40,191 nucleotides of DNA, from UHGV virus genome UHGV-1553673, one strand, 5' to 3'. Made by a program: the position numbers and the translations under genes. A model generated the notes under the pieces. That model was not told the DNA's origin. It ran no database searches and saw only the letters and a program-made list of their open reading frames with translations. This DNA comes from a virus. Numbering within the stretch: position 1 is the stretch's first letter; each line of letters opens with the position of its first letter. Of the stretch, positions 26,014 through 26,280 are shown piece after piece.

Positions 26014-26280
26014 ATGACACACATGATCTTTCGTCATGGCGACATGAAGAAGTGGAAAGGCGTTGGCTACGACTTTGAAATCGTGAAAGCCGAAGAGATT
26101 CATGAATATCTGGATGCTGGTTGGTTTGCACATCCCGATGACCTTCTGAAGGATGTTGCAGAGCCAGAGCCAGAGCCAGAGCCAGAGCCAGAGCCAGAGC
26201 CAGAGCCAGAAGAAAAGCAGCGTAAAAAGCCTGGTCGAAAACCTAAGGCGGCATCAGATGAACCTGACAACGAAGGGTGA
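26014..26280 (+). CDS. Small protein with an (Glu-Pro)8 repeat linker
   Basis: GGAGA RBS before the ATG at 26014; contains the (GAGCCA)8 tract. Confidence 0.5.
26161..26208. repeat. Perfect tandem hexanucleotide repeat (GAGCCA)x8
   Basis: Eight exact 6-nt units read directly from the sequence. Confidence 0.95.

Follow-up and report, generated by a model that had tools for sequence, protein, structure and literature searches.

In phage P22, the coat gene is followed by an annotated 'RNA stem-loop' and then by orf69, a small open reading frame (ORF) that overlaps gene 4. Homologues of the corresponding gene of epsilon34, gene 6, have been described as differing markedly in length and as having an unknown role (Villafane et al. 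2008, PMC2629481), and a passage of that article citing Eppler et al. 1991 gives the gene as not essential in P22 in the laboratory. The small ORFs of CUS-3, Brookers and epsilon34 occupy the identical slot and can be aligned with the family, APSE-1 has an unannotated ORF in the corresponding slot, and a distant metagenomic member, P0129, lies between P22_CoatProtein and P22_Tail-4 genes. In nearly every listed gp4-containing phage, a 'hypothetical protein' is annotated across the gene 4 start. HK620 hkbT is also found between the coat gene and gene 4, but as hhalign aligned only its basic motif with the family, homology was unsupported and we treat hkbT as a positional analogue.

The DNA analysed here, referred to as the window, is a stretch of 40,191 nucleotides (UHGV-1553673) comprising a complete P22-like temperate phage or prophage of the genus Lederbergvirus. 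Its gene content includes an integrase, an Mnt/Arc repressor and an O-antigen acetyltransferase-like gene, its tail genes encode a Sf6-type needle knob and a tailspike with a P22-type head-binding domain, and its nearest relatives are IME10 and APC_JM3.2 (97.6% identity over the region). All features of the coat–gene 4 region given below are on the plus strand. The coat (major capsid) gene, the upstream neighbour of the small ORF, spans 24674–25969 (Pfam P22_CoatProtein, E 7.6e-166). Directly 3' of its stop codon, a terminator scan identified a terminator-like hairpin, GGGAGC-TTCG-GCTCCC followed by T6 (25975–25999, with stem-loop and T6 at 25978–25999; RNA fold -18.4 kcal/mol, z -2.9), and the equivalent site is annotated as an 'RNA stem-loop' in P22-pbi and as 'terminator tGP5' in HK620. 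We found no promoter-like site between the coat gene and the small ORF, and the repeat tract that is the subject of this study is internal to the ORF rather than located in a promoter. The small ORF encodes 88 residues from ATG 26014 to TGA 26278–26280 and is preceded, 6 nt 5' of its ATG, by the Shine-Dalgarno (SD) motif GGAG (26004–26007); a GGAG-type motif is likewise found 5' of the homologous ORFs in P22, CUS-3 and Brookers. Gene 4, which encodes the head-tail adaptor or packaged-DNA stabilisation protein (26258–26758; Pfam P22_Tail-4, E 4.3e-58; PHROG 637), starts at ATG 26258, resulting in an overlap of 23 nt with the 3' end of the small ORF. An earlier note on this DNA had placed the ORF after the coat-gene terminator and over the gene 4 start region; both statements hold, and all of its coordinates were correct.

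The small ORF matched PHROG 1175, annotated 'unknown function', over its full length (E 3.3e-36), and was homologous to the 69-residue product of P22 orf69 (BLASTP 9e-9; hhalign probability 98%, E 1.2e-13). Significant sequence similarity and its position, 3' of the coat hairpin and extending into the gene 4 start, both assign it to the P22 orf69/epsilon34 gene 6 family, with whose namesakes it also shares a homologous N-terminal domain (N-domain) bearing a G-W-x-x-H-P motif and a basic GRKPKA motif. The differences lie between these two elements. P22 orf69 has a non-repetitive linker of seven residues, PVEADDV, and epsilon34 gene 6, a long form belonging to PHROG 3769, has an inserted WDGH domain and no repeat, whereas the window allele carries a pure 48-nt microsatellite, the unit of which is present in 1–33 copies in its lineage.

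The distribution and substitution pattern of the small ORF indicate that it is a genuine late-operon accessory gene. Its homologous proteins fell into 386 clusters at 90% identity, in which the flanks of the tract were near-invariant, and the 120 listed clusters with a source name came from E. coli, Shigella, Salmonella, E. fergusonii, E. albertii and Klebsiella. Of 94 related loci, 91 had an intact ORF that ended within the gene 4 start. Among 37 distinct alleles of the N-domain, 20 of the 29 variable sites were at third codon positions in the ORF frame, and the ratio of synonymous to non-synonymous differences from the window was 112:81 in this frame versus 14:176 and 24:167 in the other two. 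By this measure, the N-domain is under clear purifying selection at the protein level. Since hundreds of homologues were found and the ORF is substituted as coding sequence, it does not fit the grounds on which the earlier note would have set the repeat aside, namely an ORF without homologues or expression, or a repeat that is invariant and non-coding in relatives. Broken versions were also encountered: one locus (L045) has a stop after 13 codons of the small ORF, and the versions in P0131, P0121, P0122, P0124 and P0126 are frameshifted, truncated or, in P0131, fused in frame to gp4. Such versions may reflect errors of sequencing or the occasional pseudogene.

The repeat can also be read in the +1 frame as (SQ)n, in which case it would belong to an N-terminally extended gene 4 and the small ORF would be spurious. 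This frame is open from an ATG at 26153 through into gene 4 (window 26153–26758), and the IME10 records in RefSeq (NC_019501.1; L001 3254–3859) and GenBank annotate gene 4 in this way, with 201 residues from the upstream ATG and the small ORF omitted. However, the upstream ATG is absent in 9 of the 94 loci and another locus has a stop in frame, substitutions upstream of the tract, in the N-domain region, fit neither alternative frame, and the alignments of both P22 gp4 and Pfam P22_Tail-4 begin at the downstream ATG. Moreover, a conserved SD precedes 26258, whereas at 26153 a GAAGG motif abuts the ATG without spacing, and RefSeq E. coli genomes annotate the small ORF together with a 166-residue gp4. 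On the basis of the codon pattern and of the missing ATG and the stop among the 94 loci we rejected the extended gp4, which we judge to be very improbable. The 201-residue gene 4 of IME10 looks like an annotation error, as does the label 'recombinase RmuC' that gp4 bears in the APC_JM3.2 record. A programmed +1 frameshift fusing the small protein to gp4 was also rejected, because the stop context (GGG TGA in the window, GAC TAA in P22) is not conserved and the overlap lengths vary.

AlphaFold2, run with a 12-sequence alignment, predicted that residues 1–48 (26014–26157) form a β-β-α mini-domain, with β-strands at residues 2–8 and 19–25 and a helix at residues 26–34. The pLDDT was 73–89 over residues 1–40, while the remainder of the protein scored 54–65 and had no secondary structure. 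The mini-domain contains the conserved motif G-W-x-x-H-P-D, and the residues that are invariant in the alignment include R7, G9, W14, G16, Y19, D20, G36, W37, H40, P41 and D42. The repeat encodes residues 50–65 and is followed by a tail of 23 residues, which includes a basic, AT-hook-like peptide of 10 residues (26221–26250) that has GRKPKA in common with P22 orf69. The G, R and K codons of this motif differ synonymously between the window and P22 (GGT/GGC, CGA/CGC and AAA/AAG), which suggests that it is conserved at the protein level. The protein is thus modelled as a folded N-domain of ~45 residues, an acidic (EP)n spacer that is predicted to be extended or disordered, and a basic GRKPK peptide.

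Two described peptides resemble parts of this tail. Like an AT-hook, the basic motif is a short peptide of Pro, Gly, Arg and Lys in a disordered tail, and the tail of the distant P0129 protein, KRRGRPPKA, has the canonical R-G-R-P core. The window protein, however, has P-G-R-K-P and gave no match to Pfam AT_hook (PF02178), and even P0129 scored 14 bits, below the gathering threshold of 17.4 bits; DNA binding is putative. The second likeness is to the proline-rich spacer of TonB, in which (EP)n is followed by (KP)n, just as the acidic Glu-Pro run of the window protein is followed by a Lys/Pro-rich basic run. The TonB spacer is an extended rod, similar to a polyproline II (PPII) helix, whose length is largely dispensable. 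TonB models gave weak compositional matches to residues 47–81 (NCBIfam TonB, 15.8 bits versus a cut-off of 265), but the window protein lacks a transmembrane anchor and a TonB C-terminal domain and is predicted to be cytoplasmic. This resemblance is compositional and not homology, and we do not class the protein with TonB. Trypanosome procyclin (PARP, PF05887) likewise matched on EP composition only (20.5 bits versus a cut-off of 100), and searches of Pfam, NCBIfam and PADLOC returned compositional matches to PARP, TonB and DarA only, all far under their cut-offs. For the N-domain, a phmmer search of 1.8 billion representative proteins gave 12 matches, all from one narrow family, a PDB sequence search with the long allele described below found nothing, and no structural or sequence relatives of established function were detected. 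Because the N-domain has no detectable relatives of known function, a model of the protein as an anchor plus a nucleic-acid-binding tail is speculative.

The tail of the small ORF also carries the translation signals of gene 4. The gene 4 SD, TAAGGCGG (26244–26251), lies within the P-K-A codons of the small ORF and is kept 6–7 nt before the gene 4 ATG in five phages (the window, P22, HK620, CUS-3 and epsilon34). In the window, SD and ATG together occupy 26244–26260, inside the small-ORF codons P-K-A ... D-E. The K-A codons thus double as the SD, and the terminal N-E-G-stop overlies the conserved T-K-G-D of gp4. Read from these overlapping codons, the terminal N-E-G-stop of the small protein is forced by T-K-G-D, and part of the conservation of the tail is explained by the gene 4 SD and start rather than by protein function.

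This arrangement bears on an alternative in which the small ORF mainly carries ribosomes over the post-terminator region into the gene 4 start by translational coupling, with repeat length or the minor codons GAG and CCA modulating gp4 output and the peptide mattering little. In keeping with such a role, in every lineage examined the small ORF ended 11–26 nt inside gene 4 and contained the gene 4 SD within its codons. A pure leader, however, would need neither protein-level purifying selection on the N-domain nor a GRKPK motif kept between the window and P22 with synonymous codons. In addition, since the stop, SD and ATG all lie at a fixed distance from the tract, repeat number is expected to have no effect on translation into the gene 4 start, and in-frame length changes should leave the geometry of coupling alone. 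We consider a leader role of this kind quite unlikely.

The tract itself consists of eight GAGCCA units at 26161–26208, preceded by GCA and followed by GAAGAA (26158–26214). Direct reading and TRF (26159–26210, period 6, 8.7 copies, 100% matches, score 104) agreed, confirming the earlier observation of eight exact hexanucleotide units that encode (EP)8 in the 88-residue ORF at 26014–26280. This was the top-scoring tandem repeat of the window in TRF. A three-unit probe matched only within the tract, and none of 100 dinucleotide-preserving shuffles gave any match. The tract thus contains head-to-tail perfect copies far beyond chance, as expected of a coding microsatellite or variable-number tandem repeat (VNTR). 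As perfect repeats can be binding arrays or collapse artefacts, we also weighed the possibility that the tract is a nucleic-acid-level element, either a structured RNA or a protein-binding site, or an artefact of assembly, for which we found no positive support. The tract had no Rfam match and no hairpin potential (z +1.1), the eight-unit allele is also present in the independent isolates IME10 and APC_JM3.2, and in-frame alleles occur throughout hundreds of independent assemblies. We give these readings hardly any credence.

Copy number was compared among 94 related loci and part of the 219 matching E. coli complete-genome records; the region was present in 217 of 5,426 complete E. coli genomes (~4%). 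The 80 loci from IMG/VR, together with phage and genome loci, had 1–14 units per tract. Alleles read directly from E. coli chromosomes include tracts of 13, 24, 29 and 33 pure GAGCCA units, all in frame, and match spans in a rank-spread sample of the E. coli records imply 1–24 units. Every tract length read from sequence differed by a multiple of 6, and the frame was kept in 94 of 94 loci. Odd spans such as 530 and 506 corresponded to a 1-nt intergenic difference, and the four such coding sequences that were checked were all intact. The comparison among related prophages that the earlier note had proposed therefore shows a tract that is not invariant but varies from 1 to 33 units, and is in line with its expectation that slippage would alter the length of the linker without breaking the frame.

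Copy number also differed between close relatives. Six of 14 locus pairs with identical 800-nt flanks (43%) had different numbers of units (11/13/14, 9/12, 5/6 and 29/33), so near-identical relatives are polymorphic in whole-unit steps, as is typical of a VNTR. Spans were identical in re-sequenced or sister strains (two records of E. coli W, H5/H6 and 0H15/0H25), which argues against assembly noise and also indicates that copy number does not change at an extreme rate. Two 4.83-Mb assemblies labelled 'E. coli DH5alpha', H60 and H66 (NZ_CP026085.1 and NZ_CM135829.1), carry a P22-like prophage whose span of 489 (about 6 units) equals that of E. coli W; as genuine K-12 derivatives are ~4.6 Mb, these labels are probably wrong.

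Some alleles were pure arrays built on GAACCA instead of GAGCCA (L012, L021 and L023), and many others were interrupted by single-base variants giving ES, DP, EQ, ET, EL, KP or GP units. Both kinds of array fit slippage with low constraint on the residues, and the life cycle expected of a microsatellite. In distant relatives the linker is short and rich in EP (for example AEPEPEPT, DPEPEPE or ELPEPE), while P22 has PVEADDV and epsilon34 none; because these linkers are short and P22 and epsilon34 have no repeat, EP amplification is specific to a lineage.

The locus invites comparison with two classes of repeat. It is like phase-variable contingency loci in having a hypermutable simple-sequence repeat inside a gene, but its unit of 6 nt causes no frameshift and no on/off switching, and changes in the repeat shift neither the reading frame nor promoter spacing. 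The likeness to in-frame coding microsatellites or VNTRs of bacterial and prophage genes, the type of locus on which MLVA typing relies, is closer: the units are short and perfect with a length divisible by three, their number varies stepwise between nearly identical relatives, older arrays are interrupted, and the array lies in a low-complexity linker. The EP locus itself has been flagged only as a 'repeat_region' in the GenBank record of APC_JM3.2; in the literature searched, which covered orf69, hkbT, the WDGH domain, the repeat sequence and MLVA loci in E. coli prophages, it was not described as a VNTR.

In other E. coli prophages, the corresponding slot holds a 203-residue allele (PHROG 3769, epsilon34 gene 6 type) composed of a divergent N-domain, an inserted Pfam WDGH domain (PF25311, E 1.5e-39), and the shared (EP)n and tail; the WDGH domain is absent from the window protein. 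Two WDGH alleles, L091 and L092 (E. coli NZ_CP178707.1 and NZ_CP191548.1), were ~97% identical in DNA to the window up to 26008, and their identity resumed inside the EP tract, at 26177. As identity breaks before the start of the ORF and resumes within the tract, the EP tract lies on a mosaic module junction. WDGH alleles vary in copy number as well: 3 and 5 EP units were read directly, and spans of 821–845 in steps of 6 suggest ~1–5 units.

The explanation that we consider probable is a slippage-driven and largely tolerated polymorphism in the length of an in-frame linker in a gene of the P22 orf69 family, and not phase variation. An ancestral EP-rich linker, represented by (EP)2–3 in distant relatives, has undergone amplification in the E. 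coli/Shigella IME10-like lineage, where the tract gains and loses one or more 6-nt units at a time. A unit of two codons can be added or removed without a frameshift, so that length changes neither silence the gene nor interrupt translation into the gene 4 start. We infer replication slippage as the source of the changes. Mismatch repair by E. coli MutS deals with loops of up to about 4 nt but sees 6-nt loops poorly, and loops of one unit would thus be expected to escape it. If (EP)n adopts a PPII-like conformation, at ~3.1 Å per residue, the alleles would span roughly 6 to 200 Å. So broad a range, together with the lack of a repeat in P22, is better explained by tolerated variation in length than by a ruler function. 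Spacer length thus appears to be under little constraint and the polymorphism to be mostly mutational noise rather than a regulated switch, with the neutrality of length inferred only from the breadth of the distribution. Our best guess as to the protein, from its architecture alone, is that the N-domain would dock on a partner and the basic tail would contact nucleic acid, with (EP)n as a passive spacer. As a counterpoint to this explanation, the long pure arrays of 24–33 units could reflect selection for expansion and not drift.

Alternatively, the microsatellite might be maintained as a rapid source of spacer-length variants of a functional late protein, to the benefit of a more heterogeneous phage population. 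The variants might differ in how far a DNA-binding tail extends from an N-domain bound to capsid or portal, or in an epitope recognised by host immunity. In favour of this, the flanking 800 nt change more slowly than copy number, very long pure arrays, up to 33 units, are retained in intact ORFs, and the gene is unusually plastic for its operon, showing a domain insertion, internal deletions and, at the tract, a mosaic joint. Weighing against adaptive maintenance are the 30-fold range in length, which is difficult to reconcile with a ruler, the entire absence of the repeat from P22, the dispensability of the gene in P22 as given in the passage cited above (PMC2629481), and the spans shared by sister and re-sequenced strains. 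We regard it as rather unlikely. A more elaborate proposal, to which we assign a low probability, is that of a phage-borne tuning locus: rapid changes in a rigid acidic spacer, which would separate a mini-domain docking on a partner from a tail that binds nucleic acid, would provide heritable heterogeneity in a late function, and the tract would also be a site at which recombination exchanges N-terminal modules. Were this true, the late function could be to retain or eject the genome, or to evade a host system sensing proteins of the capsid region, and would be carried out by a protein made together with the portal-closing adaptor gp4.

Under the preferred explanation of tolerated slippage, the EP tract is an ordinary in-frame coding microsatellite in a disordered linker, and is unlikely to reveal a new kind of mechanism. 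The gene family, the length heterogeneity of its homologues (2008) and one 'repeat_region' flag were already known; for the 1–33-unit VNTR, the modular architecture and the mosaic joint at the tract, no prior description was found in the literature searched. For P22-like phages, the analysis makes clearer how a conserved yet neglected gene should be annotated, corrects the gene 4 start in the IME10 RefSeq record, and shows the small ORF to be under purifying selection and modular in design. The in-frame VNTR could serve as a typing marker for P22-like prophages of E. coli, and the naturally occurring alleles, which range from no repeat to (EP)33, offer a ready-made test of the role of the orf69 family and of linker length.

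Several other features of the window were noted. In the early region, a 355-residue ORF on the minus strand (5835–6905) matched Pfam Gad1 (Gabija anti-defence 1; E 5.6e-67). An 11-bp repeat, TACCAGCA(A/G)AT, forms two clusters (11602–11628 and 11668–11699) inside an ORF at 11208–12107 that adjoins, on the 5' side, a DnaB-type helicase gene (12082–13533); the clusters are probably replication-origin iterons. Between the ejection-protein genes and the tailspike, in the 'ant moron' position, a gene for an endonuclease with HNH_3 and AP2 domains (34048–34590, minus strand) lies beside an Arc/Mnt-type repressor gene (33656–33949, minus strand). The tail needle gene (28176–29024) encodes 282 residues with a Sf6-type knob (PF16532, E 2e-114), whereas gene 26 of the otherwise near-identical IME10 encodes 233 residues, judged by length to be a P22-type knobless needle; this difference would represent a mosaic swap within the tail module.
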